64,000 nucleotides of DNA. It comes from Candidatus Thorarchaeota archaeon. Its GTDB lineage: Archaea > Asgardarchaeota > Thorarchaeia > Thorarchaeales > Thorarchaeaceae. The translations under genes were made by a program, and so were the position numbers. The notes under the pieces were generated by a model. That model was not told where the DNA came from and searched no databases. It worked only from the letters and a program-made list of their open reading frames with translations. Shown piece by piece: positions 33,074 to 54,602 of this stretch (positions are counted from its first letter, which is position 1; every line of letters starts with the position of its first letter). The stretch is taken from contig DXJO01000041.1 in assembly GCA_019057475.1 (NCBI GenBank), forward strand, positions 32,001-96,000, read 5' to 3'.

Positions 33074-33181
33074 GGGCCGGTAGTTCAGCCTGGACGCGAC
33101 TTCACTCGCGAAGCCGCGGGGACCTAGAATGCCTCCTTGGCATGGAGGAGGTCGTGAGTTCAAATCTCACCCGGTCCACCA
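33074..33181 (+). tRNA. tRNA-Ala(GGC) with ~31-nt D-loop intron (~33095-33125)
   Basis: GGGCCGG/CCGGTCC acceptor with G3:U70 Ala identity pair, CCTCC-TTGGCAT-GGAGG, GTGAG-TTCAAAT-CTCAC, CCA. Confidence 0.92.
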
Positions 33182-33187
33182 TTTCTT

Positions 33188-35896
33188 CTATTCCAATGAC
33201 CCCTCTTTCTGAAGTTGCCTTCTTACTCTCTCTACGTCATCAGGTCTTTCCGCTAGCCAACTCTTAACCTTGTCAGATTTCTTCGGGTCGTTGGGTGGAG
33301 CAAGTAATGCCCATCTAATTGCATCATCCTTGGACTTGGTCTTTGCCACCCATTTCAGTGAGATTCTACCAGTTCCTTCATACAATGTAATATTCTCTGC
33401 ATAGATATGTATCTCAATGCCCAATTGCTTTGCCAAAGTCGCTTCATCATCTAACAACTTGCTTCGTTTGGTTTCTACGATTGATAATGCAGTTCGAGCA
33501 ACTTCCGATTCGGATTGCTCCTCAATTCTTGAAATCGGTATGAAGATATGCCCTCTCACCTTATCCCTTCTTACATTTTCCATACCACTCAAAAAATCAA
33601 TCTCTTTCTGCATGAATCCGGGTTCCAGTTTATATTTCACATCGTTACTTCCAGAATTGAGTACAATAGTCCGACTCCATCTGAAACCGGCATAGTGTCC
33701 GAATGATCCGTCCTCTGAAATCAAGTCTTCCAAATATGCTCTACTGGATTCGAGAGTTCCATTCCTCACAGATTCTACAAGCCGTTCATTTTGAATGGGC
33801 TTATCACCAACTGTAAATCCCCAGTAAATGAAAGCCTTGCCCACTGGTCGTGGGAGCAACATTTTGGAACATTCACTCGCTTCATTTGGCACCTGGGTAA
33901 ATGATATGTTTCCGAAGCATTGAAACTGCTTCTCTACTATTCTTATTCTATCAGCATTAGCCTCAGTGTATTGTAGCTGACCATCTGCTCCAAGCCAACA
34001 ATCGCTATTGACAACTGCACCTAACCGAGCTCGCAGAATCTCCAGTTCTTTTCCTCTGAGAAGTTTTGGATGAGGAATTCCACCGCGCCCGTTCTTCCCT
34101 GTGACCTTCTCAATCCCATCCTCAAAATCCCGTGGCGAAGCTCCCAAAATGTTGCATTGTAGATGCAAGACCTCTCCCATTGCACGTGATTGACCGCTCT
34201 TTATCCTAATCTGACTCGCGGAATCATCTGACACCATCTGCCGAATCAGTTTATTGAGATGTTGTAGTCTGGAGTAACTACCCTCATCTAGTTTGAGTCT
34301 ATCTCCAACTCTTTCTACTATGCTCGCAAGGTCTTGGCTTTTGAAGTGGAAGTAATGGTCAGCCCATACATTGATGAGATCATCGGATGTCTTGTTTGGA
34401 GTCCAGACGTAAATTCTGTTGTCCACCACACCCAACCGAATGTTTCGGTCAGATTCACTCAACCCTAGACGGTCCTGCAAAGCCGCTTCAACCTCTGTGT
34501 GGTTGGCTTCTAGAGCTTCTTTGAAGTGCGTCAATCTATCCTTGTTCAATCCCCCGGAGTTGAGTTCCAGATATGACACCTTGACCTTGGTGTCGATTGA
34601 CTCTCTATGCAGTTCCTCAGCAACATCAGTTAGTGTCTTGAGGGAATCTGATTCATTGTCACATCTCGATAGAGCTTCAAGTAGTTTGGTTAATCTAATT
34701 TCATGAACAGTTCTACTTGATAACCCCGGAAATTCTACATGTCCAATATCTCTCACAACCGCTCGCCTTTCTCTCTGTAGGTAGTCATTCAACCTTTCAT
34801 GCGCCCATTCTTTCACGATACGGTCTTCTTCGAGCCTTCGAAGAGTAGCGACGGATTCCGGTTCCTTCCCCGACCTATAATCACTGATCCGTTGTTGAAT
34901 CACTTCATGAGTCTTAGCCAGCTGTTGCTGCGTCTTTGACTTGCTATCCTTGACATCCAAATAGACACCAGCTCGCCTATAGGACTCCTGGGAATTTTTC
35001 CATCCTCGTAGATGCGGATATGTTTCCAGCAATCTGTCAATGTCGGTCATTGTTTCTATTCTGACTTCTGGGGAATGACCAACATCTCTTTCATATGCAA
35101 GATGCAACTCCTTCTTCTCAATGAATGATAGAAGCTTTGGAGTATGTCTTCGACTGCTTTCGTCTGATTCAAAATACTGTCTTATCCTGCTATACTCCTT
35201 CTCGAAGTTCTCCCTATAGCGAAATTCTGGGTATCTCTTGAGCGCTCGGTCAAAATCGTCTATTGAACGAATTACCCTGACTTGTCCGACATCTTTCTCT
35301 CTCTTGGTCATCTTGGATTCAGGTCGTCCCGTTCTCAGCCTGTGATGTTGCTGTTCCTTTGAATCCTTCCGAGTTTCCGACGCCTTTTTGTCTTCCTTGG
35401 CGTCTGTACCTGAAGACCGAAACCGCTTTTCCTGTGCGGACTCAACGCTAGAGGCTGACTCTCGCTTGGTTTTCTTGGTCGGTTTGCTTTGCTCCTCTCG
35501 TTCTTGGGAATCCTTGGTTTTTTCTTCCGAGCTATCAGCACTCCTGCGAGCAACTGAGAATCTGAAGGCTTCAGCAATGGTTCTTAGCAAGTCCCTCCCC
35601 GAGTCCTTCACTTCGGAAGTAGAAAACCGGCTTGGACGTTTTCTATTTCCGTTGGGAAACATATGCTTCCACTCACGTTCAACCCACTCATCGAACTTCT
35701 TCCTGTCGACCAAGCACGCATCTGACACGACAGGCTTGTGGTCTTTGGGAAGGTCACCGTGAAGGTGCTCCTTCTCTCTCTTCTTCAGTTTCTGTTTTCT
35801 TTGGAACTCCTGAGCAGCTTCTGTCAGTTTAGATGCTAGCTCCCTCCTAAGCCGCGCCTTGGTCTTTGATTCAATCCCTTTGAATCGGGATCCCAC
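33188..35896 (-). CDS. 902-aa protein: charged N-terminus, internal repeat, Cro/XRE-like HTH, C-terminal tandem LAGLIDADG-like domain
   Basis: TQQQLAKTHEVIQQRISDYRSGK (HTH); LGAVVNSDCWL and YLEDLISEDGSF (two LAGLIDADG-like helices ~95 aa apart). Confidence 0.6.
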   Translation of the reverse strand: MGSRFKGIESKTKARLRRELASKLTEAAQEFQRKQKLKKREKEHLHGDLPKDHKPVVSDACLVDRKKFDEWVEREWKHMFPNGNRKRPSRFSTSEVKDSGRDLLRTIAEAFRFSVARRSADSSEEKTKDSQEREEQSKPTKKTKRESASSVESAQEKRFRSSGTDAKEDKKASETRKDSKEQQHHRLRTGRPESKMTKREKDVGQVRVIRSIDDFDRALKRYPEFRYRENFEKEYSRIRQYFESDESSRRHTPKLLSFIEKKELHLAYERDVGHSPEVRIETMTDIDRLLETYPHLRGWKNSQESYRRAGVYLDVKDSKSKTQQQLAKTHEVIQQRISDYRSGKEPESVATLRRLEEDRIVKEWAHERLNDYLQRERRAVVRDIGHVEFPGLSSRTVHEIRLTKLLEALSRCDNESDSLKTLTDVAEELHRESIDTKVKVSYLELNSGGLNKDRLTHFKEALEANHTEVEAALQDRLGLSESDRNIRLGVVDNRIYVWTPNKTSDDLINVWADHYFHFKSQDLASIVERVGDRLKLDEGSYSRLQHLNKLIRQMVSDDSASQIRIKSGQSRAMGEVLHLQCNILGASPRDFEDGIEKVTGKNGRGGIPHPKLLRGKELEILRARLGAVVNSDCWLGADGQLQYTEANADRIRIVEKQFQCFGNISFTQVPNEASECSKMLLPRPVGKAFIYWGFTVGDKPIQNERLVESVRNGTLESSRAYLEDLISEDGSFGHYAGFRWSRTIVLNSGSNDVKYKLEPGFMQKEIDFLSGMENVRRDKVRGHIFIPISRIEEQSESEVARTALSIVETKRSKLLDDEATLAKQLGIEIHIYAENITLYEGTGRISLKWVAKTKSKDDAIRWALLAPPNDPKKSDKVKSWLAERPDDVERVRRQLQKEGSLE

Positions 35897-38455
35897 TCAA
35901 ACCCCTCCGCTCTCGGGCAGAGTCAAGCCCGATTGCAAGTTATCACCCACTAGCTTGGCCACCAAGTCACGGTCCGGCGGATTGGAGGGTGCTCCAAGGA
36001 TCTCAACTGAACGTTTCAGGAGAACCCAAGCGAACTCAATCGGGCTCAGGTTGGGAACCTGAAGGCTGGCCGCGTAGAATGCAATCACCTCTTCGACTCG
36101 GTGTGCTGTATCGTCCTGGCCCTTGACGCCTATTGATGCGAGGTACAGTCTGCGAAAATCATCATCCTGAACCACATCTTCAACCAGAAGTGCTAGTTGG
36201 ACTATGTCATCGCCGTTGGTTCTAGGCTCAAGTTGCGGCGCTCTTGGTGTTGCTGCAAAATCTGGATGTGTATCATAGAAGGGCTTCATTCTTCTTCTCA
36301 CATCATCATCTGTCCAATTGTGTTTCATGTCCGGATGAAACTCAGGGTCATAGAACACCTTTACCTTGGTCGGAACATCGTCAGAAGGCAAACGTAGAAC
36401 AATTTCCCCATTCTTCAGAACGCCTATGTGCCTTGCCTGCTCCGGCGTACAGCCTGTTTCCAGACCAAGCAAGTTCCAATCCTCTGGACTCGTTAAACGA
36501 TGTACAATCTTCGTATTGCAGGTCTTGAGAGCATCACGCGATAGACGCGCGGGGTTCTGGTCAGCTATCACAAGCCCGAGTCCAGAACTTCTAGCTTCTG
36601 CAAGCAGGTTCAGCAGCTGGTCCAGAACTTGTCTTCTTGAAACTGCGCCCTCGCTCATGTCGGCAATTCTGGGCAGTTCCTCAAGGAAACTATGCGCCTC
36701 ATCAATCACAAGCAGATTGCGGAGCTTTTTCGCCGGACCAAGCTTGTCAAAGAATTCGTAAACACGGATGATAAGAAGACTAAGCATAAGGGCCTTGAAG
36801 CTAGGGTCACCAATGTGCTTCAGCTCAATGATAGTTGGCTTTGAGAGCAGCTCATCGATTGGTAAGTTCCTTTCAGCGTTGAGAATTGCCGCACGCGATT
36901 GGTCACAGAGATCCTGAGCTCTTGCTACAATAGCGCCTTCGAAGTCTTTCTTGAGTTCCGCACCATATCTGAGATTTCGTGAGTAGGTTTCTGCTTCCTC
37001 TAAAAACATGTCCAGCGTGATGGGTTTTCCTGGACTGTTGTTGAGCAAATCCCATCCATTATGCTTGTACGTCCGATTTATCACCTTGCGTAAATGATTG
37101 GCGAGAATACCGTAAAGTGGCCATGCAGCCAAGAAACATGAATAGAGCAAGTCAATGTGAAGTTGAACTGGCACATTCACGTCAATCAGGAACGGATTAT
37201 GGCGGTAGGGAGCCACATCCTCCCGGCCCACCGTGAAGACGCGCATCTCAGGAATGGCACCCATGAGAATGCGTGCATCGGTTTTCACCGGCTCAATCAA
37301 CAGACTAGGAATTCCGTTCCTCCATGCGTCGATGACAATCCTGTTCTTTGTAGTGCTCTTTCCTGACCCTGACATTCCTACGATGGCCGTGTGGAGTCTA
37401 AGTTGCTCCATCTCAATGAGTTTCGTTCGTGACTTGTCAACAGTGTTGTGTCGGAATACATGACCGAGAGCGATACGACCAGTTTGGAATTCTAGGATCT
37501 CTGATGTCGATTGTGTTGCTTTGGCGCCAGATGTTGAAAATGATGCTGGGCTGCCTACTCTTGTCCCAACTTCGACACTGGGGACCTCAACCAATGAAAC
37601 CGCTTCTTCCGGCAGCAGTTCAGTTGTCATCCTCCTCCTTTCTAGCATGAGCGTCTTTCGAATCACGTTTCGGGCAATCTTACCTGAGAGAAACCTAACC
37701 TTCATCCTGGCGTTTCTGTGGCTGGATGAGAGTGCTGCAAGCAATGCATTCACAGCAGTTCTCAGCTTCTCTTCCGAATCCGGTCGATCCCAGAATGCCA
37801 ATGTGATTTGACATTTCAGAACGCGATTCGAGATTGACCTCCCATAGTTTCTCTCAAGATGTTTGAGGTTCATCTTGGCGTTTACATCAGCTTGTGTCGC
37901 AGTTTCTTGACCCCCCAGCCAAGTCTGAGTCGTTTTTTGCCTTTGGAGGCCCTCCAAAGCAGACCTGTAGCGCTTCTTTGCAAGAATTCGCCTAGCCCTA
38001 CTTGGCCTCGCAGGAACCATCCAGACTTGGTATAATGAATTACCTTCGAAGTTGACCATAATCTCTGTCATTGCCTGCAATGCTTGGACAGCCGGCTGGG
38101 GAACTCCGGTCAATAACGCAGCATTTGCTTGTCCAGCCACCAAAGGGCACCCAACTTCGGATAAGGACTGAACCACGAACTCAGGGAAGTGCGCTGCAAA
38201 GCTCTCCTTGATGACCTCCATATTCGACCTACTACCTCTTGTAACGTAGAGCAATCGAGCATTCCCTCCTGACCCTTGAATCCTGAATCCAGTTGGGACA
38301 TCCGTGTGTGAAAGAGAACTTAGGAATCTCTCAAGCTTGACATGCGTCGGACTGGAAGCCTTTTTCTCAAGATGCTTCATGGCATGCTCGAAGTAGGACC
38401 TAGGAATCTCAGTAATCTCGATTGCATACACTTGGTTCCTGTGGTTCTTTTCCAA
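35897..38455 (-). CDS. HerA/FtsK/VirB4-superfamily ATPase with ~330-aa N-terminal extension
   Basis: HTAIVGMSGSGKST (Walker A), LLVIDEAH (Walker B), EARSSG..LVIADQNP. Confidence 0.85.
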   Translation of the reverse strand: MEKNHRNQVYAIEITEIPRSYFEHAMKHLEKKASSPTHVKLERFLSSLSHTDVPTGFRIQGSGGNARLLYVTRGSRSNMEVIKESFAAHFPEFVVQSLSEVGCPLVAGQANAALLTGVPQPAVQALQAMTEIMVNFEGNSLYQVWMVPARPSRARRILAKKRYRSALEGLQRQKTTQTWLGGQETATQADVNAKMNLKHLERNYGRSISNRVLKCQITLAFWDRPDSEEKLRTAVNALLAALSSSHRNARMKVRFLSGKIARNVIRKTLMLERRRMTTELLPEEAVSLVEVPSVEVGTRVGSPASFSTSGAKATQSTSEILEFQTGRIALGHVFRHNTVDKSRTKLIEMEQLRLHTAIVGMSGSGKSTTKNRIVIDAWRNGIPSLLIEPVKTDARILMGAIPEMRVFTVGREDVAPYRHNPFLIDVNVPVQLHIDLLYSCFLAAWPLYGILANHLRKVINRTYKHNGWDLLNNSPGKPITLDMFLEEAETYSRNLRYGAELKKDFEGAIVARAQDLCDQSRAAILNAERNLPIDELLSKPTIIELKHIGDPSFKALMLSLLIIRVYEFFDKLGPAKKLRNLLVIDEAHSFLEELPRIADMSEGAVSRRQVLDQLLNLLAEARSSGLGLVIADQNPARLSRDALKTCNTKIVHRLTSPEDWNLLGLETGCTPEQARHIGVLKNGEIVLRLPSDDVPTKVKVFYDPEFHPDMKHNWTDDDVRRRMKPFYDTHPDFAATPRAPQLEPRTNGDDIVQLALLVEDVVQDDDFRRLYLASIGVKGQDDTAHRVEEVIAFYAASLQVPNLSPIEFAWVLLKRSVEILGAPSNPPDRDLVAKLVGDNLQSGLTLPESGGV

Positions 38456-38704: not shown

Positions 38705-39280
38705 ATGGAAGATATCCAATGGGTAGTCAAGCATAGGGATGAGATAAACAACTGGTACTCCGACCTTGGCGTATTTGGGGATGACGCACTCTATGAAGAT
38801 GGAGATAGTAAAGCCTACTATGAAAGCTATGTTGTCAATTATGTAGCAGCGAATGCAGAGAAATTCACAGGAAAGCCGCCCAATCATATCTGGCATGAGT
38901 TGGATGTGCACGATTTCAGATTGAAAGAAATTGAAACAGATCCTAATGTAAAACCCTGGTGGAAGGGTCGTGTTAAACCAGATTTGTTATTGCAGTTTGA
39001 CGATGCGATTTGGGTGATCGAGGTCAAATTCGGTTTCAAAAGCCCTAATCTCGAAGCAGTCCCGACGATGAAGGGTCCGAAGTCCTGCATCGATCAAGTC
39101 AGTATCTACGTAAAGAGGCTTGAAAATATGATGACTCTGGGATGGTTTCCAAACATGGAGATTCATCCGGTTGTAGTCTGGGCTTTTTGGGAAAAACGAG
39201 TACGCCCGTCCGAGATGTACATGGACGCAATCCGGTCAGAGTGGCCCTATTTGCGAGAAGACCCGTATCCGAAACCATAG
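38705..39280 (+). CDS. PD-(D/E)XK-superfamily nuclease
   Basis: KPDLL...VIEVK...QVSIY. Confidence 0.7.
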   Translation: MEDIQWVVKHRDEINNWYSDLGVFGDDALYEDGDSKAYYESYVVNYVAANAEKFTGKPPNHIWHELDVHDFRLKEIETDPNVKPWWKGRVKPDLLLQFDDAIWVIEVKFGFKSPNLEAVPTMKGPKSCIDQVSIYVKRLENMMTLGWFPNMEIHPVVVWAFWEKRVRPSEMYMDAIRSEWPYLREDPYPKP

Positions 39281-39470
39281 AAGGAGGCCACTTGCCCCTA
39301 TGACTGCGGGAATCGAAGTCATAACAGGGTTGATCTACCGGCCCATGTTGTTGGTTCGCAATTCTTGATGGAACGGCTAAAAGAATTGTGAAGTGAAGCG
39401 AGGACCTTGGTCATCGAAACTTAAGGAATCTATCTTTGATGGTTTTAGCTGCTCAATTATGCCTTGGCTT

Positions 39471-40899
39471 CTAGTTGATTTGCTTCTCAATGTGATTTAG
39501 GAATTTAATCAGATTGTTGAGATTCTTTCTGATGTCTAGCAATGAATCCCTATCTGTGAAACTTCCCAAGTGATGAACATCAACGTTGAAATCATTCTTC
39601 AGTTTCTCCAAATCAGCCTTTAGCTTGTCTGTTTTCTTTCTATTTGTAGTGGGAGAAAATTTGATAATCTCGTCAGGGAATGCTATCCAGAAATTGGTAA
39701 GAAGCTCACTAAAGGACTTCGATCTATATTCACCTCGTCGGTCTTTGTATAGGTAAAGGCCGGAATCGTTCTTCCCGAACTTTCGCTGCAGTATCGATAT
39801 CACAAGATTCTCTAGAAGTTTCCGTGATAGAAAAGCCGTGCAGACATAGCATCCAGCACTAAAGGCATTGTTAATCTCCTCTACGAGGTCGTACATCAAT
39901 CCTCCAAAGTCAAGAGGGTTGATATAGAAGAATGTCTGTTTTCGGGATACTGACTCCTTTTCATAAGTGGATTCTTGCACTAATGTGTCAACAAACTTAA
40001 TGTTCCCGAGAAAACGCTGAACCCATTTTGGCATTGGCCTGAAAGATGCATATTTAGCTGATGCCTGTAGCATCACATCGTTATCGATTGAAAGAAGTTG
40101 AAAGTTATCGCAATGAAATAAGGGAGTGATGTCTATCTCCTGAAGCTGGTTATGATTCAGTTTCAATTCTCTCATGAGTTTGCAATTCGCTAAAGGCGAC
40201 AGGTCTATCTTCCGAAGTCGATTGGATGAGAAATCTAGCTTCTCGAGTGAGTGTAATCCTGAAAGCGGTTCGAGTTCAATCGATTCCAACTTATTTGCTG
40301 AACATGATAACGTTCTCAATGTTTTGATATGCCTTAATGGAACAAGGTCAATTATCTTAAGGGAATTGCGTCCAATATTTAGATTCATCAATCTCCTAAG
40401 CTTCGAGAGAGGCTCTAAGTTGACTGTTTCTAATTGATTATTATAGAAATAAAGTGATTCTAGATGAGGTATGTTTCCAAGTGAGTTGAAATCTAAATCA
40501 GTCAGCATATTCTGAATCATATTTATGGTTTTCAGATTAGGATGACCTGCAAGTCCGGATAGATCAATTGCAGTGAGCTTATTCTCAGTGAGATCAAGCG
40601 ATTCAAGCCGATCACATCCATTCAATGAATCCAACTTTGCATCCTTGATTCGATTAAATGAGATATTGAGATGTTCTAACCGTTTGCATTGTTCTATGCC
40701 GTGAAGATAGAGATATTCTAAATAATTGCCACCGAGGTCTATGCTTTTTTAAAAAGCGGAAATTCGAGAAATGATTAAATTCGATTGCTGTGATTTTCAT
40801 CCCCCTTAGAGATATGTATTCCGCACTCTCATCAAACTCTTTAGATTCCTGTTCACCTGAGCTTGTCCGGAAATATACTTTCCACCTAATTACGATCAC
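39471..40899 (-). pseudogene. Leucine-rich repeat protein with C-terminal HEPN/DUF4145-like domain, split by a frameshift near 40745-40755
   Basis: LRR register LxxLxLxxNxLxxIDLxPL continues across ORFs 40654..40899 and 39471..40634 if one A is removed from T5A6G; C-term EINNAFSAGCYVCTAFLSRKLLE...FNVDVH. Confidence 0.75.
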
Positions 40900-40960
40900 T
40901 CCCTATGTTCCCGTAGAATACACTCTATCAACCCTAGTTGTAACTCAGAGGTCATTTTTA

Positions 40961-43798
40961 TCATTTCAATTCCTTAAGAATCAAGTTGTCTATTCGTTTC
41001 TTGGATTCCAACTCAGAGAGCCCCCAGCATTCAATGTAAGTCAAATTCAAGAACTGGAGCGCTTTCATGACATCCCTACGGTGATGTTCAGAAATCTTGG
41101 TCGCAGCTTCATGGAACATTTTGATGGCTTTAACGAAGTTTGCTTCCGCTTCTTTGCATTTGCTCAACCCATGATAGGTTTTTCCAAAATTTGCATATAT
41201 CATGGCCATTTCAACAAGATGGGTTTCTCTTGAGTTTTCAAGTAGCTTCTTCCTAATCTCCATTGATTCAAGTAGGTATTTTCCTGCCGTCCCCCATCTC
41301 TCCAAACAGTGCAGTGCAATGGCGATATTATTCAAGTTCGCTGCAATTGCAGCTCCATAGGCATTTCCTTCCTCAGGAAGTGATCGCCAAATATCTAGTG
41401 CTTCCAAGTGAAGCTCCAATGATTCTGAGCATTTTCCGATATCAGTGTAGAGAAACCCAAGAGCATTAAGTGCATTCGCAAGATTCATTTCAAAGAAACT
41501 GGATACTTCTGCATCTAGTTCTCTATAGATGGCTATGCTCTCTCTCAAGCGTTCTTCGCTTTCGTGTAGAAGTTTTGGATTTCCTGAACTGATTCCTAAT
41601 CTATGACAAGCGATTCCAAGTGCATTCAGAGTGTCAGCAACCGATGAGATATGAATATGAAACGGAAGCATTTCGTCAAGAGTTTTACGTATATCAAGAG
41701 TCTCTGTAAGCATGGAAATACTTGAATTGAGATTGCCAGAATCCTTTAGAAGTAGTCCAAGGTTGTGGAGAATCGTCCCTCTCAAAGAGAGATAGATTTC
41801 AGGGTACTTGTCTAGTTGCTGCTGAACAACATCTAAAGCTCTCCTAAAATGTAACTCTCCTTGTTTGTAGTTGCGTAGTCCATAATAGGATAAACCTAGA
41901 CTGTTATGGACTCCAACCAAATTATAGAAGAACTCTTCTTCTTTTCTGGCTGAAAGGTTTTCAAAAAGATTCAATGATTCATTCAAGGATTTCAGAGACT
42001 CGGAGAATCGACCTAGTCGACGATAGAGATTTCCTAGATTGTTCAGGTTTCCAGCTTTACCTTCCTGAGAAATGTCGGGATGTGAGTCAATGAATTGGTT
42101 GTTGATTGCCAATGCATCTTTCAAGTATGTTTCTGCATCTGTAAGTTGCCCTTTACTTCGGCATAACAATGCGTAATTGTTCAGCACGCCTGCCACATGC
42201 AACAATCTTTCATCTTTTGGTTCAATTGGTTCAGTTTTATATCTGCTAATAGCTTCCACAAATTGCACACTGGCGTCACCCAGAACACCAATGTCCAAAT
42301 AGGATTGACCTAGCATTCCCTTCTGAATTGATTTGAACCAATCTGATCGAAATTCAACAGATTCGAGCAGTTCAGATATTTCTTCATACTTGTGCCGCAT
42401 TCGAAAACTTCGCAGGATTGGTCGAAGCTCTTGCATCGCATGGTTTTCCGAGTATAATGCTGCAGAAGAAACAGCTAGTGACAGAAAAGATAGGTTTCCA
42501 CTCTCTTTGTAGTGTTTCATAAGAATTGAACTTGCTTCTAGGATGATTTCAGGCGTGTCTTCATTGACCATCCTGATGGCAAGCTCGCGTGCAATCTCAT
42601 GCATTCTGAAGTATGGCTCTTCAAAAGTAATGACACTCAATCTAATGAAATCCCTCCAAATCTGCGGGTCTAGAGATGGGCAAATTAGCCGAGCTATATT
42701 TCTGTCAAAATGCGGAATTAGGGCTAATCTACTAGCGATTGGAGATAAATGTCGAAGTCCGTCAAAGAGAAGCTTCCATGATCTCTCATATACTTCTGAT
42801 ATGGTATGTTGTTCAAAATCGGTCAACTCTGAAATGACTAAAGCATCTCTCTCAAAGGCATCACAGAAAGCATGAATTACAAACGGTGACTCGTGACTTG
42901 ATAGTATGATGATATTTCGTATCTCTTTAGGTATTCCTCTTTTTTCAAGAATTTTGTTGCAGCTTTTGCGATCAAGTTGTTGTATTTCTTTGTCCTGCCT
43001 TGATACCCCCAGCACTTGAGGTGGAAGGGGTAGCGTTCTTGCTGCAAGTACTCCTAGACTTCCCTTTACCTTGGTCAGAAATAAATGCCACAGTTCACCT
43101 TCACTTAAACTGACCACTTCATTTCCAACTTTAGAAGGAAAACGCATGAAATCATCCAAATGATCAATGGAGTCCAACATGATTAGGAATGGTAGGTCCT
43201 TCTCCGTTACGGCATTATTCAAATCTTGGGCTAAACCATCAAGAAAAAGTTGAATAGCGAACCCTGGGTTTACTCTAAGAAGCTCTAGGAATCGTCGACC
43301 ATAATCCTTGCCAAGTTGTTCCTTCAACCAAACGCCCACTTCTCCAAAATGCATGTCTACAAGTTTATGCAGTTTCTTTCCGGTAGTAGACATGGCTACT
43401 GCGATTTTGGCAATCTGGCTTAAAGGGGGAATCCAATCCACTAAGTCTTTGATCCATCGCTTGCTTTCAGGCCTATGAGGTTCAATTCCCTTGACTAATC
43501 GAGTTCTAAGATCCAGCAGTCGATTGGATATGCTTGTCTTAATCCCCTTAGCATTGATTTCTCTGACTAGTGCCCTGTATCTTGAGTAGAAATCTCCATG
43601 GTCTCTGAAATTAACTAGAAATGAGTATTCATGCCTATGTACCAATGCCTTGAGAATGGCACTCTTTCCAATTCCTCCAATTCCGAAGATACCAACCATC
43701 GCGGTTTCTCCATCCTTGCAGGCATTCATAGTATCCAATATCCATTCAATCGTGTCCGTTCTACCCACAAAGAAAGTATCCTTTTCTAGTTGGGACAT
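40961..43798 (-). CDS. STAND-like P-loop NTPase with C-terminal TPR array
   Basis: FVGR, GIGGIGKS (Walker A), IMLDSID (Walker B), MHEIARE (MHD-like), repeated A..LNNLG.LY TPRs. Confidence 0.85.
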   Translation of the reverse strand: MSQLEKDTFFVGRTDTIEWILDTMNACKDGETAMVGIFGIGGIGKSAILKALVHRHEYSFLVNFRDHGDFYSRYRALVREINAKGIKTSISNRLLDLRTRLVKGIEPHRPESKRWIKDLVDWIPPLSQIAKIAVAMSTTGKKLHKLVDMHFGEVGVWLKEQLGKDYGRRFLELLRVNPGFAIQLFLDGLAQDLNNAVTEKDLPFLIMLDSIDHLDDFMRFPSKVGNEVVSLSEGELWHLFLTKVKGSLGVLAARTLPLPPQVLGVSRQDKEIQQLDRKSCNKILEKRGIPKEIRNIIILSSHESPFVIHAFCDAFERDALVISELTDFEQHTISEVYERSWKLLFDGLRHLSPIASRLALIPHFDRNIARLICPSLDPQIWRDFIRLSVITFEEPYFRMHEIARELAIRMVNEDTPEIILEASSILMKHYKESGNLSFLSLAVSSAALYSENHAMQELRPILRSFRMRHKYEEISELLESVEFRSDWFKSIQKGMLGQSYLDIGVLGDASVQFVEAISRYKTEPIEPKDERLLHVAGVLNNYALLCRSKGQLTDAETYLKDALAINNQFIDSHPDISQEGKAGNLNNLGNLYRRLGRFSESLKSLNESLNLFENLSARKEEEFFYNLVGVHNSLGLSYYGLRNYKQGELHFRRALDVVQQQLDKYPEIYLSLRGTILHNLGLLLKDSGNLNSSISMLTETLDIRKTLDEMLPFHIHISSVADTLNALGIACHRLGISSGNPKLLHESEERLRESIAIYRELDAEVSSFFEMNLANALNALGFLYTDIGKCSESLELHLEALDIWRSLPEEGNAYGAAIAANLNNIAIALHCLERWGTAGKYLLESMEIRKKLLENSRETHLVEMAMIYANFGKTYHGLSKCKEAEANFVKAIKMFHEAATKISEHHRRDVMKALQFLNLTYIECWGLSELESKKRIDNLILKELK

Positions 43799-45236: not shown

Positions 45237-45284
45237 TCCTTGGCATGGAAGAGGTCCCGAGTTCGAATCTCGCTCGGTCCACCA
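45237..45284 (+). repeat. tRNA-Ala 3'-half copy 1 (attR-like)
   Basis: TCCTTGGCATGGAAGAGGTCCCGAGTTCGAATCTCGCTCGGTCCACCA, 42/48 identical to 33134-33181. Confidence 0.93.
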
Positions 45285-46256: not shown

Positions 46257-46304
46257 CCTCTTTGGATAACTTAGCACTTGTGACGCACTCTGCGTGCATC
46301 CAAA

Positions 46305-46344
46305 ATGGAAGAGGTTGCGAGCTCGAATCTCGGGTGGTCCACCA
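46305..46344 (+). repeat. tRNA 3'-end copy 2
   Basis: ATGGAAGAGGTTGCGAGCTCGAATCTCGGGTGGTCCACCA, 31/40 to the tRNA-Ala 3' end. Confidence 0.85.
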
Positions 46345-46440: not shown

Positions 46441-46923
46441 ATGCTCTTCGTCACAGTTGCAGGTCTACTCTCATGGTTTATTCCAAGAAGAAGAGTGCAG
46501 TGGAAATGGTCTCTTGTAGCCTTTCTCCTAGTGACTTTGACAGTTTCATTATGGGTCATAGATGATGTCCGAGCAGCCGGTGTGGTACGTGATGTCACTC
46601 GTTCAGAAGGAGACCTTGTCTACTCCATTGTATATCTCAACAGCACTGCATTGTTCCCGTTTGTACTGCAGAAGCATCACAATTGGACCGCAAGGTCATT
46701 CGTATACTATATTCGGTTCTTGAACCATGATGGTAGCCTAGTTTCTCAGACAAGGCCAGGCCCCGATCAGAGTGAGTTTATGCATATGGCTTTGTTTGCA
46801 ATATCGATTTCCCTCTGCTTTCAAGGATTCATAATAGCTCTGCTTGCAATTCTAGGGGCGGAATTCATCACATGGTGGCGAAAACCGAACAGAATGGATA
46901 TTCTGCGTAGTATTACAGAGTAA
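46441..46923 (+). CDS. Hypothetical membrane protein (cassette 2)
   Basis: N- and C-terminal hydrophobic helices; fills the interval between copies 2 and 3. Confidence 0.6.
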   Translation: MLFVTVAGLLSWFIPRRRVQWKWSLVAFLLVTLTVSLWVIDDVRAAGVVRDVTRSEGDLVYSIVYLNSTALFPFVLQKHHNWTARSFVYYIRFLNHDGSLVSQTRPGPDQSEFMHMALFAISISLCFQGFIIALLAILGAEFITWWRKPNRMDILRSITE

Positions 46924-46942
46924 CTCTCTTATCTTCCAGTTG

Positions 46943-46970
46943 GCGAGTTCGAATCTCGCCCGGCCCACCA
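46943..46970 (+). repeat. tRNA 3'-end copy 3 (intact T arm)
   Basis: GCGAG-TTCGAAT-CTCGC-CCGGCCC-ACCA. Confidence 0.9.
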
Positions 46971-47002
46971 ATCGTTTTCGTAGTCGTTCCTTTCAACGAA
47001 TT

Positions 47003-47425
47003 TCATCCACGACTCCGCTCATGAAGTCGAGTTCGAATTCTGTCAAGCAACAGGCGTATGTCTATTCGGTAGGGCGAGAAGAGATAAAGCAGTCCTAGAG
47101 CAACCCAGACAATCCAGATTCCACAATGTATGAACATTATGTAGAATACCTGGTCAATAAGATATCCATGTGAAAGCGCCTGATACCCCCCGGACGGAGC
47201 TGGAATGGGAAGGAATCTCCCGGGAGGGAGGCTTGACCACATCAACCCCTCTTCGAGGCTCCACCACCAACCACCAATAAACCAAGCGGATATCAAAATC
47301 CAAATGTAGTAGACCAAAATGAGAGCAACCATGACGCGGCGTATCCGGGCAGCCCTGTCCACATGACGCCTCACTAGCAGGTTTTGATTCCGGAACTCCA
47401 CATTCAGAGTATTCGATTCACTCAT
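47003..47425 (-). CDS. Hypothetical 2-TM Trp-rich membrane protein (cassette 3)
   Basis: Two TM segments; ATG at 47425. Confidence 0.65.
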   Translation of the reverse strand: MSESNTLNVEFRNQNLLVRRHVDRAARIRRVMVALILVYYIWILISAWFIGGWWWSLEEGLMWSSLPPGRFLPIPAPSGGYQALSHGYLIDQVFYIMFIHCGIWIVWVALGLLYLFSPYRIDIRLLLDRIRTRLHERSRG

Positions 47426-47531
47426 CGATATCTCACAATTCCAGAGCAATGATACTCTACGAGTCAATTGCCCAGCTTTGGCAATAATCTTCCTATTTCA
47501 GTAATTGATTCCAGTAGACGACTGTATGCAC

Positions 47532-47552
47532 CGAATCTCGGCGGGTCCATCA
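47532..47552 (+). repeat. tRNA 3'-end copy 4 (degenerate)
   Basis: CGAATCTCGGCGGGTCCATCA, 18/21 to consensus CGAATCTCGCCCGGTCCACCA; intergenic. Confidence 0.7.
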
Positions 47553-47592
47553 CACTTTTCAAATCTTGGACATCTGCATGTCTTGAAAAGCC

Positions 47593-48195
47593 ATGAAACA
47601 CAAACTGCTTCTCGAATTGCCAGAAATCCTAGAAACAGATGCACTGGTCATTAGGAAATACAGGAGAGAAGATGGAAAGCAATACAATGATCTGTTTGAG
47701 AGGAATAACAATCGAGATTTGTTGAAAGAACACGTTGATGAGGCTACAGAAATCACTACAACGGAGAAAGCTGAGATCAGGATAAGAGAACATGCTGCAG
47801 AATGGGAAGCACGAACAAGGTTTGTGATGGGCGTATGGTTGAAGAAAGAAGAACTGTATATTGGCCAGATTTGGATTGAGCCCAAGAATTGGGAAGTACC
47901 GTCATTCGAACTCGGCTATTTCTTGGATGACGGATATCAGGGACATGGCATTGCATTTGTAGCAGCTAAACGTTCTCTAAGGTTCCTCTTCGATGAACTT
48001 CACGCTCACAAAGTGATGATTCTGACACGTGACACAAACGAAAAGAGCTGGAAACTAGCTGAACGACTTGGTTTTGTGAGGGAAGGTCATCTAAGGGAAT
48101 GCGGCGTTGGGAGTGGCAAACGTTGGGGTCAGTATCATTATGGAATGCTTGTAGGAGAGTACAGGACAAAGCAAAAGGGTACTTCACAGGGATAG
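47593..48195 (+). CDS. RimJ/RimL-like GNAT acetyltransferase
   Basis: ELGYFLDDGYQGHG, NEKSWKLAERLGFVREG. Confidence 0.9.
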   Translation: MKHKLLLELPEILETDALVIRKYRREDGKQYNDLFERNNNRDLLKEHVDEATEITTTEKAEIRIREHAAEWEARTRFVMGVWLKKEELYIGQIWIEPKNWEVPSFELGYFLDDGYQGHGIAFVAAKRSLRFLFDELHAHKVMILTRDTNEKSWKLAERLGFVREGHLRECGVGSGKRWGQYHYGMLVGEYRTKQKGTSQG

Positions 48196-48342
48196 CATGA
48201 TTCAATCTCAAAGGAATCTGATGCTGGCCATCTTATCGCTGATTCCAATCATGTATTCATTCTAAGGGTCGCTAAATTGAAATCGCAAAGTTGTGAAAAA
48301 CACTATAAGTTTTCATGAGCATTAAGAGATTGAGGAGTTTCT

Positions 48343-48660
48343 TTGCAGCTTGAGATTGTCCCTGAAACCGTTCTCATAAGCGTCTTTGTGGGGACATGCC
48401 TTCTCTTCACACTATACCTGATATTGAAGACATGTTCTGAAAGAAATTTGGTAAGACCTGAACGAAGGGGAGGAACACCGAGGGTTGACGACTTGACCGC
48501 AACACAGAGTGCATATGGGCATGAGGTTTCGTATTCCTCTAGCATCCGTGGGTGTGGATCTTCAGCAGGTCCTTTTCCAATTGGTGGAAGAACAGAAAGA
48601 CTTCCCACAAGGTCGTTTGGAAGCTACACTAAACCGAGAAGGAAATCAAAGAAAAGCTGA
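48343..48660 (+). CDS. Hypothetical small single-TM protein
   Basis: GAGGAG before TTG; N-terminal TM; ends ~30 nt before copy 5. Confidence 0.45.
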   Translation: MQLEIVPETVLISVFVGTCLLFTLYLILKTCSERNLVRPERRGGTPRVDDLTATQSAYGHEVSYSSSIRGCGSSAGPFPIGGRTERLPTRSFGSYTKPRRKSKKS

Positions 48661-48689
48661 CTTGTGACTTGAGGAAATCCTGGTGCGAA

Positions 48690-48711
48690 TCGAATCTCGC
48701 CCGGTCCAGCA
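48690..48711 (+). repeat. tRNA 3'-end copy 5
   Basis: TCGAATCTCGCCCGGTCCAGCA, 21/22 to consensus. Confidence 0.85.
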
Positions 48712-49062
48712 CTCACTCCTAGGAATTATTGATTTTTCTCACGGTTTCTTTACATAAATGGTTGCTATAATGAGAACAACCGCGACACCAGCTCCAACAA
48801 CTAGAAACATTGTTTGCGAAGGGGGGATTGTGGAGGTTATGGGGGTTGTGGTTTCTGTTGTACTAGTTGTGTATGGCCATTATGCATATCTAGTTCTTGC
48901 CGCATTCATGACAATATTCCACATCTGATGATGACACTAGTAGTATCCTCGGTTCTAACTTTGGGAGTAATCGGAATAGTATTACTAGGAAGATGGTTTC
49001 AGAGGGATGGGGCGACTTCTTGATGGATTATGATAAATAGAAGCAACGCCGAAAGGAATTCT

Positions 49063-49836
49063 ATGAACGAGACTTTGAAGACAATTGATGATCGGAAATC
49101 GTTGAGAGGATATGATTCAAGAGAGATTTCTTCAGAACACAAGAAGTGGATTCTCCACAGTGCTTTTCGAGCTCCTACCGCGGGGAATATGATGCTTTAT
49201 TCCATCATTGAAGTAGCAGATCAAAAGATGAAGGATAAACTAGTCAAGACATGTGACAACCAACCCTTCATAGCCAAAGCCCCCCTTGTGTTATTGTTCC
49301 TTTCAGACATGCAGAGATGGTACGACCTCTTCGAATATTCCAGTGTACCAGACCTATGCAAGGAGCGAAGCATCGAATATGTCACCCCAAAAGAATCAGA
49401 CTTGCTGCTCGCTTCCTGTGATGCACTGATAGCGGCACAAAATGCTGTGATTGCTGCTGAGTCTTTGGGCATAGGTTCGTGCTACATTGGCGACATAATG
49501 GAGAACATAGAGATTCACAGAGAGATGTTTAATCTACCTAAGTGGGTCTTTCCAATAGCGCTTCTATGCTTCGGCTATCCCCGACGGGATGACCGGGATG
49601 ACCGTGAGAAGACACCCCGATTCCCTGAACACTTGGTGTATTTCAAGAACAAATACATCCGAACAGATGGTAAAGAATTCGAGTCAACACTCATGGCTCA
49701 AACCAGGGATAAGGAAGCCATCTTCAAAAAGGCCAAGAACATTGGGCAGTTCATCTATTTACGGAAGACCGGTGCAGACTTTACTACCGAGATGCGTCGT
49801 TCAGTCAAGGTCGCAATTACCGACTGGATTGAATGA
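49063..49836 (+). CDS. NfsA/Frp-like nitroreductase (flavin reductase)
   Basis: RKSLRGY, APTAGNMM, AAESLGIGSCYIG, LCFGYP. Confidence 0.9.
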   Translation: MNETLKTIDDRKSLRGYDSREISSEHKKWILHSAFRAPTAGNMMLYSIIEVADQKMKDKLVKTCDNQPFIAKAPLVLLFLSDMQRWYDLFEYSSVPDLCKERSIEYVTPKESDLLLASCDALIAAQNAVIAAESLGIGSCYIGDIMENIEIHREMFNLPKWVFPIALLCFGYPRRDDRDDREKTPRFPEHLVYFKNKYIRTDGKEFESTLMAQTRDKEAIFKKAKNIGQFIYLRKTGADFTTEMRRSVKVAITDWIE

Positions 49837-49893
49837 ATCAAGAATCGGTGCTAGACTGCGGATTACCAAATCGATGTGAAGAGGTCGCCAGTT

Positions 49894-50724
49894 ATGAATT
49901 CAGTTGCTCTGGTGAAGTGCAAAAGCAGCGTCGGCAAAGCCCTACAAGAGGGCCTTGAGCATATTGGTGGTTTCGGGGTTCTAGATTCTCCAGTTCTCAT
50001 CAAACCAAATATCTGCACAATATCAGACGATACAGGATACTCTGTTACTCAGGTAGAGGTTGTCAAAGCTTTAGTCGAGCTGTTATTGCAAACTGATGAG
50101 GACCTATCCATCAAGATTGTTGAGTCTGACAGCCAGAGTAAGTTTGCAGAAGAAGCCTTTGAGAAGTTCGGATACAAACGACTCTGTGATGATATGAAGG
50201 ACTCAGGATTCGATGTAAGGACTGTTGACCTCAGTAAGGACCCCTTGATGGAGCTCCAGTTCGTTGGGGATTACTTCGAGAATCCTGAACTGCCAGAAAC
50301 AGTCCTCAATGCAGGATATTTCATCTCAGTTGCAGTCCCTAAGACACACTATCTTTCCTTTATCACGGGGGCTTTGAAGAATCTCTTTGGAATCCTTCCA
50401 AGAAAAGACCAAGCGTACTATCATTCAAAGATAGATGAAGTGATTGTGGATTTAGCTAGAATCATCAGACCGAACCTATGCATTATTGACGCAAGAATAG
50501 GCGTTGAGGGATGGAATGGTCCTAAAACAAGAAGGCTTGATGCATACATCGTGGGACACGGAGCAGTATCAGTAGATGCAACAATGGCACGAATCATGGG
50601 TTTCGAGCCTGAACAGATTCGTCACATCATGGATTCGCATGATTATGATCTGGGTACGATTGATCCCACTGTTCTTGGTGAATCTATCGAGTCGATCGCA
50701 GTCAATTTCAAACCTCCGAGATAG
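49894..50724 (+). CDS. DUF362-family protein
   Basis: VLIKPNI, PKTH, TGALKNLFG, GPK, VSVDA. Confidence 0.85.
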   Translation: MNSVALVKCKSSVGKALQEGLEHIGGFGVLDSPVLIKPNICTISDDTGYSVTQVEVVKALVELLLQTDEDLSIKIVESDSQSKFAEEAFEKFGYKRLCDDMKDSGFDVRTVDLSKDPLMELQFVGDYFENPELPETVLNAGYFISVAVPKTHYLSFITGALKNLFGILPRKDQAYYHSKIDEVIVDLARIIRPNLCIIDARIGVEGWNGPKTRRLDAYIVGHGAVSVDATMARIMGFEPEQIRHIMDSHDYDLGTIDPTVLGESIESIAVNFKPPR

Positions 50725-50762
50725 AGAGAAATTATGTTTCTGATGCATATCCACATAATTAT

Positions 50763-50792
50763 GGTCGAGGCCAAATCTCACTCGGTCCACCA
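50763..50792 (+). repeat. tRNA 3'-end copy 6
   Basis: CAAATCTCACTCGGTCCACCA (50772-50792), 20/21 to the resident tRNA-Ala. Confidence 0.85.
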
Positions 50793-50948
50793 GTTTCATT
50801 ATGAAGCATTCAGAGAGAGATTGAACGGAACAATGGGATTAAGGGAAATTGGTCAAGACTCCCATTCTTCGAATGTGTGAGAAGATTCTTATCAAAGCTC
50901 GGCAAATCCTAACAGTCTGTGAATAATCGCAGACGGAGTTAGGAAAAG

Positions 50949-51200
50949 ATGAAATTCCTCATAGAATGGCATACTAAGCCAAAACATAGAGAGAAGTTGA
51001 ATAATCTAATCGAAAAGTGGAAGCCTCCAGACGAATTTAAATTCTTGATTCCGCCTTATCACGTGGTGGGTGGTCATCGAGGCATGGCTGTAATTGAAGT
51101 CGATGATGTGGAAATCCTCCAGAAGGGTCTAGGATTCTTCATGGATTTCGCGGATTTCGTGGTCACACCGATCCGTCCTTTGCTTCCTGTTCCTAAGTAG
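50949..51200 (+). CDS. DUF3303-like small protein
   Basis: MKFLIEW...YHVVGGHRGMAVIEVDD...VTPI. Confidence 0.75.
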   Translation: MKFLIEWHTKPKHREKLNNLIEKWKPPDEFKFLIPPYHVVGGHRGMAVIEVDDVEILQKGLGFFMDFADFVVTPIRPLLPVPK

Positions 51201-51284
51201 TCCAGTTATCTATCAACTTGTGCATTGGAACTCTTTCAGTGAGTACGATACCCCATTCAATAAGAGAAAGAAAGAGCCTATCGA

Positions 51285-51307
51285 TTCGAATCTCACCCGG
51301 GCCACCA
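51285..51307 (+). repeat. tRNA 3'-end copy 7 (distal boundary)
   Basis: TTCGAATCTCACCCGGGCCACCA, 21/23 to the resident tRNA-Ala. Confidence 0.85.
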
Positions 51308-51382
51308 CTCTCTTCTCATCATCCCTATCCCATCCAAATGAATCAAATACGTCAATAGAGATGCTCTCATTGGAGAAGTAAC

Positions 51383-54447: not shown

Positions 54448-54521
54448 GGGCCAGTGGTCTAGCGTATGACATCTCTCTGATATAGAGAAGATCGAAGGTT
54501 TCAGTCCTTCCTGGCCGACCA
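54448..54521 (+). tRNA. Degenerate tRNA-Ile(GAT), possibly a pseudogene
   Basis: TCTCT-CTGATAT-AGAGA anticodon arm, GAAGG/CCTTC T stem, ACCA end; G1:G72 mismatch, T loop TTTCAGT, no D-loop GG. Confidence 0.65.
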
Positions 54522-54523
54522 AT

Positions 54524-54602
54524 GGGATGTTGGTCTAGCTCGGTGAATGACATTGCTCTTATATGGCGAAGATTGGCGGTTCGATTCCGCCACATCCCAC
54601 CA
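54524..54602 (+). tRNA. tRNA-Ile(TAT)
   Basis: GGGATGT/ACATCCC perfect acceptor, GTC/GAC D stem with GG, TTGCT-CTTATAT-GGCGA, GGCGG-TTCGATT-CCGCC, A-CCA. Confidence 0.82.

Follow-up and report, generated by a model that had tools for sequence, protein, structure and literature searches.

We have analyzed a stretch of 64,000 nucleotides from a Candidatus Thorarchaeota archaeon (GenBank assembly GCA_019057475.1, contig DXJO01000041.1, positions 32,001 to 96,000 of the forward strand), termed here the window. Next to a tRNA-Ala(GGC) gene it contains two coupled genes on the minus strand, one for an ATPase and one for a 902-aa partner protein that ends in a LAGLIDADG nuclease domain, the tip. Homologues carry the annotation Candidatus Thorarchaeota. 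The module has the look of a toxin-immunity system, so far undescribed, that is made from homing endonucleases, and not of a cassette inserter. The features of the locus are as follows, in window coordinates.

33074..33181, plus strand: tRNA-Ala(GGC) with encoded CCA and a 31-nt D-loop intron at about 33094-33124
33188..35896, minus strand: gene of the 902-aa partner, GTG start; basic leader, linker, two helical repeats with helix-turn-helix (HTH) and double LAGLIDADG tip
33227..34051, minus strand: double LAGLIDADG endonuclease domain (aa 616-890), from fold matches and residue conservation
34001-34003 (D632), 33800-33802 (K699) and 33710-33712 (D729), minus strand: catalytic positions of the tip, from the alignment of homologues
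34874..34930, minus strand: helix pair resembling an HTH (aa 323-341), part of the second repeat, from the structure model and HTH matches in homologues
35020..35050, minus strand: tip-swap breakpoint (about aa 285-290), from DNA comparison with the congener G084
35537..35896, minus strand: basic helical leader (aa 1-120), which passes down with the ATPase clade; candidate ATPase-recognition region
35897..38455, minus strand: gene of the 852-aa VirB4/HerA-superfamily ATPase, TTG start; N-terminal alpha/beta domain
37355-37378 and 36698-36712, minus strand: Walker A and Walker B of the ATPase

An earlier note on this DNA had described the pair from the letters alone, and its account of the layout holds. 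The TGA of the ATPase gene touches the GTG of the partner gene without a gap, with a GGAGG-like site immediately 5' of this GTG, and the partner gene stops 6 nt from the CCA of the tRNA, inside the T-rich run that follows the CCA. As had been claimed, the partner gene lies outside any intron or intein: it is a free open reading frame in which Pfam finds no Hint domain and over which no RNA family is found, and it lacks the embedding that marks intron- or intein-encoded homing endonucleases. The motifs NSDC and SEDG, noted as LAGLIDADG-like, are true LAGLIDADG helices, and their best fold matches are homing endonucleases of inteins and introns. As to the proposed HTH, an HTH-like helix pair is modelled; Pfam finds none in the focal protein and weak-to-moderate matches in homologues. 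The two-gene module holds as well, and the coupling recurs across Thorarchaeia, with a gap of -17 to +14 nt in 23 of 25 pairs. The tRNA-Ala gene was overlooked by ARAGORN at default settings because its D-loop intron hid it; the orthologue at locus L005 is intron-less.

The partner protein had no match in sequence searches of Pfam, NCBIfam, PADLOC or PDB, and its identity came from folding alone. The model has a predicted local distance difference test value (pLDDT) of about 90 over the C-terminal 400 aa. The top fold match of aa 616-890 is TliVMA (Z 17.6, rmsd 2.3, 186 aligned), followed by PI-PfuI (Z 17.3); WhiA is also among the matches (Z 16.2), and Foldseek matches I-Tsp061I with an E value of 2.5e-5. 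The modelled tip has the two helices and the beta-saddle fold of a double-motif LAGLIDADG enzyme. We term the family of the focal tip LAG_A. Among 143 homologues position 632 is D in 142, position 729 is D or E in all, and position 699 is K or R in 142; the family thus carries an acidic residue in each motif and a basic general base. With at least 142 of the 143 homologues agreeing at each of the two acidic positions and at the basic one, the focal partner is probably an active nuclease. LAG_A was matched in 53 of 87 Thorarchaeia genomes, with up to 12 matches each, and falls into 390 clusters at 50% identity.

One ATPase family is served by exchangeable tips. We compared 51 ATPase loci with downstream sequence, a sample that is biased to LAG_A. 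The partners were LAG_A (30), LAG_B, a second LAGLIDADG family (Pfam LAGLIDADG_3; 7), double HNH (3), NUMOD3-HNH (2), other charged-leader proteins (4) and others (5). Partners other than LAG_A have similar charged fronts, and their tips are LAG_B, NUMOD3-HNH, HTH repeats with double HNH, or unknown domains. Within the clade of the focal ATPase (11 rows with a support of 100) four partners are LAG_A, six are LAG_B and one is double HNH, and tip types are discordant with the ATPase tree. Between the window and G084 the ATPase proteins are 84-100% identical; the partner proteins are 70-96% identical up to aa ~290 and 26-58% identical beyond, and the DNA identity of 92.8% over the ATPase gene and the first ~290 partner codons collapses at the same place. 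By this comparison the focal partner gene is a chimera with its breakpoint within the repeated helical module. The focal genome carries a second ATPase-LAG_A pair on contig C42 (L001) and a solo LAG_B tip on contig C18. Three partners share 70-82% identity over about 690 residues and then end in three unrelated tips; here the L001 copy has 82% identity with a LAG_B partner over aa 1-687 and 70% with the third tip type. These alignments document an exchange of tips by recombination inside the partner repeats. In the focal ATPase clade the leader is basic in each of the 11 partners, and acidic or mixed leaders occur in other clades; a profile built from nine members of the clade scores the focal leader 4.6 against 4.4 for the best shuffle, and a shared composition is all that is evident among the basic leaders. 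In addition, 30 of the 57 LAG_A tips lie without an ATPase gene beside them. The module therefore has both a constant N-terminal region with swapped C-terminal nuclease domains and orphan C-terminal cassettes, two hallmarks of polymorphic toxins.

A third such hallmark, a downstream immunity gene, is putatively present at the level of the family. F2 is an acidic family of 200 aa with a net charge of -11, present in 31 genomes, every one of which also has LAG_A. It lies immediately 3' of LAG_A in 27 of 30 loci, and two more have tandem F2 arrays. An ESMFold2 complex of the LAG_A tip of a relative (L058) with its own F2 scored 0.78 against 0.02 for the best control; the score mark is reached by 58 of 80 solved pairs and by 2 of 110 mismatched pairs. 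The runs agreed in at least 80% of contacts, with a partner pLDDT of at least 86. In the model F2 contacts the second catalytic motif, the loop around the general base with the residues on either side of that base, and the two beta-saddles that bind DNA. F2 is thus predicted to bind the active site and the DNA-binding saddle, that is, to be an immunity protein, and by this prediction it looks as expected of a DNA mimic. F2 was not found in the focal tip clade, and an atlas search with F2 gave no match at 0.9.

In a tree of 57 tips the clades match the sites at which the tips lie, and ATPase-coupled and solo tips are interleaved. The focal tip clade is found at tRNA-Ala(GGC) in 6 of 8 members, and further clades are found at tRNA-Asn(GTT), at the 3' end of ahcY and at other sites. 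Abutment to a tRNA tracks the nuclease tip, including tips without an ATPase. In the focal ATPase clade an acyl-CoA dehydrogenase gene adjoins the end of most of the six LAG_B partners, and a tRNA-Leu that of the HNH partner. As judged from the tree, the site association belongs to the tip clade and not to the ATPase. A tip lies within 1.5 kb at 23 of 56 tRNA-Asn loci; only 7 of about 51 tRNA-Ala(GGC) loci have the tip, and all 7 intact tips at tRNA-Ala adjoin a whole tRNA. The congener G082 has the same tRNA-Ala intron allele without the 13.1-kb segment that contains the module, hence an empty site, and in G084 a leftover piece of the focal tip lies 25 kb down the array of that genome, with its tRNA end still attached. 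The empty allele and the displaced remnant together indicate that the tip and the tRNA 3' end move as a unit. A fixed conserved site with empty alleles in relatives is one mark of a free-standing homing endonuclease, and this is the pattern found here, with which vertical inheritance with loss is compatible as well.

The tRNA genes next to the tips have features of their own. Archaeal tRNA genes usually have at most three introns. The median intron number of tRNA-Asn genes is 3 beside tips without F2 (n=15), 2 beside tips with F2 (n=8) and 2 where there is no tip (n=33); the difference between the first and the last group has a p of 0.008, in a comparison in which kin are not independent and intron numbers are estimated from gene length. 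For tRNA-Ala the corresponding comparison gave no significant difference. The tRNA-Asn(GTT) genes at L303, L295 and L305 (genomes G053, G038 and G056) are 219-226 nt long with about five putative introns, in the D loop, the D/anticodon junction, the anticodon loop, the variable region and the T loop, and many relatives of these genes have four. Within one family (L253-L280) compensatory variants are numerous in the T stem of tRNA-Ala(GGC), possibly a form of nuclease escape. Collaborative homing with the D-loop intron of tRNA-Ala was considered and is not supported: the intron is present in 6 of 7 genes with a tip and 20 of 44 without (hand tally, Fisher p 0.10), and the G084 tip adjoins an intron-less tRNA. 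At L001 (15409-16509, contig C42 of the focal genome) and at L195 an ATPase-LAG_A pair directly precedes a methylmalonyl-CoA mutase gene of which only the 3' part is present. This part encodes aa 206-557 of a third copy, of which the 5' part was not found; two full copies lie elsewhere.

The ATPase (model pLDDT 87) has full-length TrwK/VirB4 proteins as its top Foldseek matches (E 5e-16, 878 columns), and its N-terminal domain aligns with that of VirB4 and not with the HerA barrel. By structure it is thus a VirB4-like ATPase of the type found in type IV secretion, Ced and Ted systems, while sequence matches stay below cut-off: NCBIfam gives weak matches to CedD and TraC far under the cut-off, and PADLOC gives weak HerA matches (E 1e-13) confined to the C-terminal 100-150 aa. 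About half of the ATPases examined have 3-5 N-terminal membrane helices. In one clade (L196, L198, L200, L202 and L038) three conserved membrane genes precede the ATPase gene, with products of about 105, 220 and 270 aa and with 1, 3 and 3-4 helices. Those of the three that were tested had no match in Pfam or NCBIfam, and they are candidates for an export channel. ATPase matches were found in 42 of 87 Thorarchaeia genomes and in 11 genomes of other Asgard families, several of which share the partner layout. Viral contigs contained no relative of the tip and only weak matches to the motor domain of the ATPase. The focal genome has a distant 1250-aa membrane ATPase paralogue (L186 8311-12063, contig C54) near tRNA-Glu(CTC), and a 640-720 aa family without Pfam match recurs at L001 (3741-5732), L196, L197 and L202, either in the vicinity of the ATPase gene or in the interval that separates it from the tip.

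Swapped tips on a constant front, orphan tips, the linkage and predicted binding of F2, the fidelity to sites and the VirB4-like ATPase lead us to read the module, with about even confidence, as a polymorphic nuclease-effector system whose tips also home, present in Thorarchaeia and in a small number of further Asgard lineages. The ATPase would recognise the leader and move the partner protein into a neighbouring cell, where the tip would cut a conserved gene, either a tRNA gene or the end of a housekeeping gene. The recipient would then die, or repair the break from donor DNA and thereby place a copy of the tip beside the target. Under this reading such repair explains why each tip clade abuts one particular gene. 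Copies without F2, such as the focal one, would be protected by an altered target, be it the insertion beside the CCA, a changed allele or an intron.

Several points weigh against this reading. Rare-cutting LAGLIDADG enzymes kill only weakly. No export channel is identified at the focal locus, since the focal ATPase has no membrane helix; the focal genome has no homologue of the three membrane genes, and with Pfam and NCBIfam no pilin or VirB6 homologue was recognised. The motor domain of the ATPase, taken alone, ties DndH with VirB4 (Z 32.4 and 32.0), with HerA close (29.0), and a role as DNA translocase fits as well. About half of the LAG_A genes are not beside an ATPase. The complex with F2 was predicted for the relative and not for the focal protein, F2 was not found in the focal genome (96% complete), and the focal locus has no immunity gene, the tRNA directly following the partner gene.

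The main, if doubtful, alternative is purely selfish homing, in which free-standing homing endonucleases spread by cutting empty alleles (intronless homing) and nothing is killed. The ATPase would then be a conjugation- or Ced-like DNA pump that unites the alleles of donor and recipient, the partner would be relaxase-like, and F2 would only time the activity. The conserved catalytic residues and the tip clades at fixed sites (6/8 of the focal clade at tRNA-Ala(GGC), and the tRNA-Asn and ahcY clades) agree with it, as do the tips at 23/56 tRNA-Asn loci, the whole tRNAs beside 7/7 intact tips at tRNA-Ala, the empty allele in G082 and the displaced remnant in G084. Intronless homing is established (PMC3984707), and the archaeal DNA-transfer ATPases CedB/TedB are VirB4-like DNA pumps (PMC9905601). 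However, homing alone leaves the fusion of a constant leader to unrelated nucleases unexplained, together with the tandem F2 arrays, which mirror poly-immunity loci, and no CedA/VirB6 or pilin was identified beside most copies. That the tip is a site-specific mobile nuclease is claimed by selfish homing and by the effector reading alike. A further, unlikely reading would be a transmissible gene drive: the ATPase would deliver the homing endonuclease to neighbours, kin would be spared by the DNA-mimic inhibitor or an altered target, and non-kin would die or be converted by repair from donor DNA, while breaks in tRNA genes would feed the arrays and select the 3-5 introns of some Thorarchaeia tRNAs.

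An intracellular defence of the HerA-DUF4297, Sir2-HerA or HerA-NurA type, in which the motor feeds invading DNA to the nuclease, appears quite unlikely to us. It would suit the resemblance of the motor domain to HerA and DndH, the weak PADLOC matches to HerA, and the restriction and HEPN genes that are frequent neighbours of the module. However, the N-terminal domain follows VirB4, many members of the ATPase family are membrane-anchored, and the partner is a LAGLIDADG protein, where HerA defence pairs have HerA above the curated cut-off with NurA, Sir2 or DUF4297. HerA-type systems are not known to us to have site-specific or solo tips, or an inhibitor gene that follows. The earlier note had offered two roles, a motor-nuclease conflict system and an engine of cassette insertion at the tRNA. 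The first is the better supported, in a form that was not foreseen, with swappable tips and a cognate inhibitor gene.

The second, in which the pair replaces an integrase and drives the array of tRNA-fragment cassettes, is very unlikely. It draws on the position of the module at the head of the array in the focal genome and in G084, on the homologous insertion that a break at the tRNA 3' end would promote, on the ragged 5' ends and foreign alleles of the array fragments, and on the focal contig having no tyrosine recombinase. No recombinase stands at the site, as it does in integrons and tRNA-targeted integrative elements. However, eight tyrosine recombinases elsewhere in the genome could act in trans, and LAGLIDADG enzymes cut DNA and do not join it. 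Neither gene was found in three genomes that have tRNA-Ala arrays, G018 (91% complete), G033 (80%) and G062 (73%), and hence the module is not a required engine of the arrays. In the survey of homologous pairs that had been proposed, a position at a tRNA could be shown for only 3 of the 11 closest ATPases, most pairs lie away from tRNAs and arrays, and few tRNA-Ala(GGC) loci have a tip. Breaks made by tips could still feed cassette gain. A domesticated, non-cutting DNA binder like WhiA, suggested by the WhiA fold match and the HTH repeats, is hardly credible given the near-invariant catalytic acidic residues, the interchange of the tip with HNH nucleases and the patchy multicopy distribution.

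Polymorphic toxin systems (Zhang et al. 2012, PMC3482391), notably those of type VII with an FtsK/HerA ATPase and LXG/WXG leaders, share with the module a constant N-terminal region, a C-terminal nuclease swapped by recombination, orphan tips, a small downstream gene that forms tandem arrays, and an FtsK/HerA-superfamily ATPase in the locus. In contrast to them, the tips are of homing-endonuclease types and track fixed target genes, the module has no known leader or secretion channel, and the focal locus has no immunity gene; the accessible part of the survey by Zhang et al. mentions neither LAGLIDADG nor VirB4 nor homing endonuclease. Free-standing LAGLIDADG endonucleases, with intronless and collaborative homing (PMC3984707), likewise have the double fold and the catalytic residues, lie outside introns and inteins beside conserved genes, and have empty alleles. 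HeimM2 of Heimdallarchaeum, an endonuclease-bearing element between 16S rRNA and tRNA-Arg (PMC8813620), belongs to the same comparison. Unlike these, the tip carries a long leader and HTH repeats in the same protein, its gene is coupled to that of an ATPase, HNH tips can take its place, and a protein inhibitor is predicted for it, whereas no protein inhibitor of LAGLIDADG enzymes is known to us. The ATPase resembles VirB4/TrwK and CedB/TedB in its full-length structural match to TrwK and its weak CedD/TraC matches, and differs in that no VirB6/CedA or pilin is recognised and that it has an obligate nuclease partner. HerA-NurA, Sir2-HerA, DUF4297-HerA and DndH are also ATPase-nuclease pairs with a similar motor domain; the module differs in its N-terminal domain, its polymorphic site-specific nuclease and its inhibitor gene, and falls below all curated cut-offs. 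By analogy, the best reading is a module that works like a polymorphic toxin system with tips that behave like free-standing homing endonucleases, and we do not assign it to any named secretion system. Searches of openly available papers found no description of the module, overlap with Makarova et al. 2019 on archaeal polymorphic toxins being unchecked.

If correct, the prokaryotes most closely related to eukaryotes would have a widespread conflict system that unites homing endonucleases and polymorphic toxins, two classes that are usually separate. F2 is a candidate for a naturally occurring protein that inhibits LAGLIDADG meganucleases, and the genomic neighbours suggest targets for about 390 nuclease clusters. 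A long-standing question also becomes testable, namely whether archaeal tRNA genes gain introns under pressure from nucleases.

The stretch at whose head the module lies, with the array, contains the following features.

38705..39280, plus strand: 191-aa PD-(D/E)XK-like protein, divergent
39281..39396, minus strand: 5' half, in inverted orientation, of a foreign allele of tRNA-Ala(GGC); it includes the upstream region and a D-loop intron unlike the resident one, and stops at the anticodon loop
45237..45284, plus strand: tRNA-Ala 3' half from the anticodon stem onward
46297..46344, plus strand: degenerate 3' fragment of tRNA-Ala, at the close of the 13.1-kb segment that G082 lacks
46923..51311, plus strand: four more tRNA 3'-end fragments (46923, 48690, 50771, 51286) that punctuate the cassette array

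The last four fragments are neighbours of the module and not part of it. The 191-aa protein was considered as a third module gene or as immunity and was rejected, being absent beside all other copies fetched; because it is not linked to the module at any of these loci it is probably cargo. Further cargo at 39471-43798, within the 13.1-kb segment, comprises an LRR protein and an NB-ARC/TPR (STAND-like) protein. The foreign halves at 39281-39396 and 45237-45284 have their boundaries at the anticodon arm, and there is an 82-nt inverted repeat with the resident tRNA. The focal genome has another array of tRNA-Ala fragments on contig C9 (L002), which likewise includes a 5' half in inverted orientation but neither ATPase nor LAG_A tip. 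A sigma-70 promoter scan of the window was discarded, as this consensus is not meaningful for an archaeon. In G074/G075 the block of tRNA and tip is inverted relative to the LSM flank. At 54448-54602 two tandem tRNA-like genes with the Ile anticodons GAT and TAT lie 2 nt apart.

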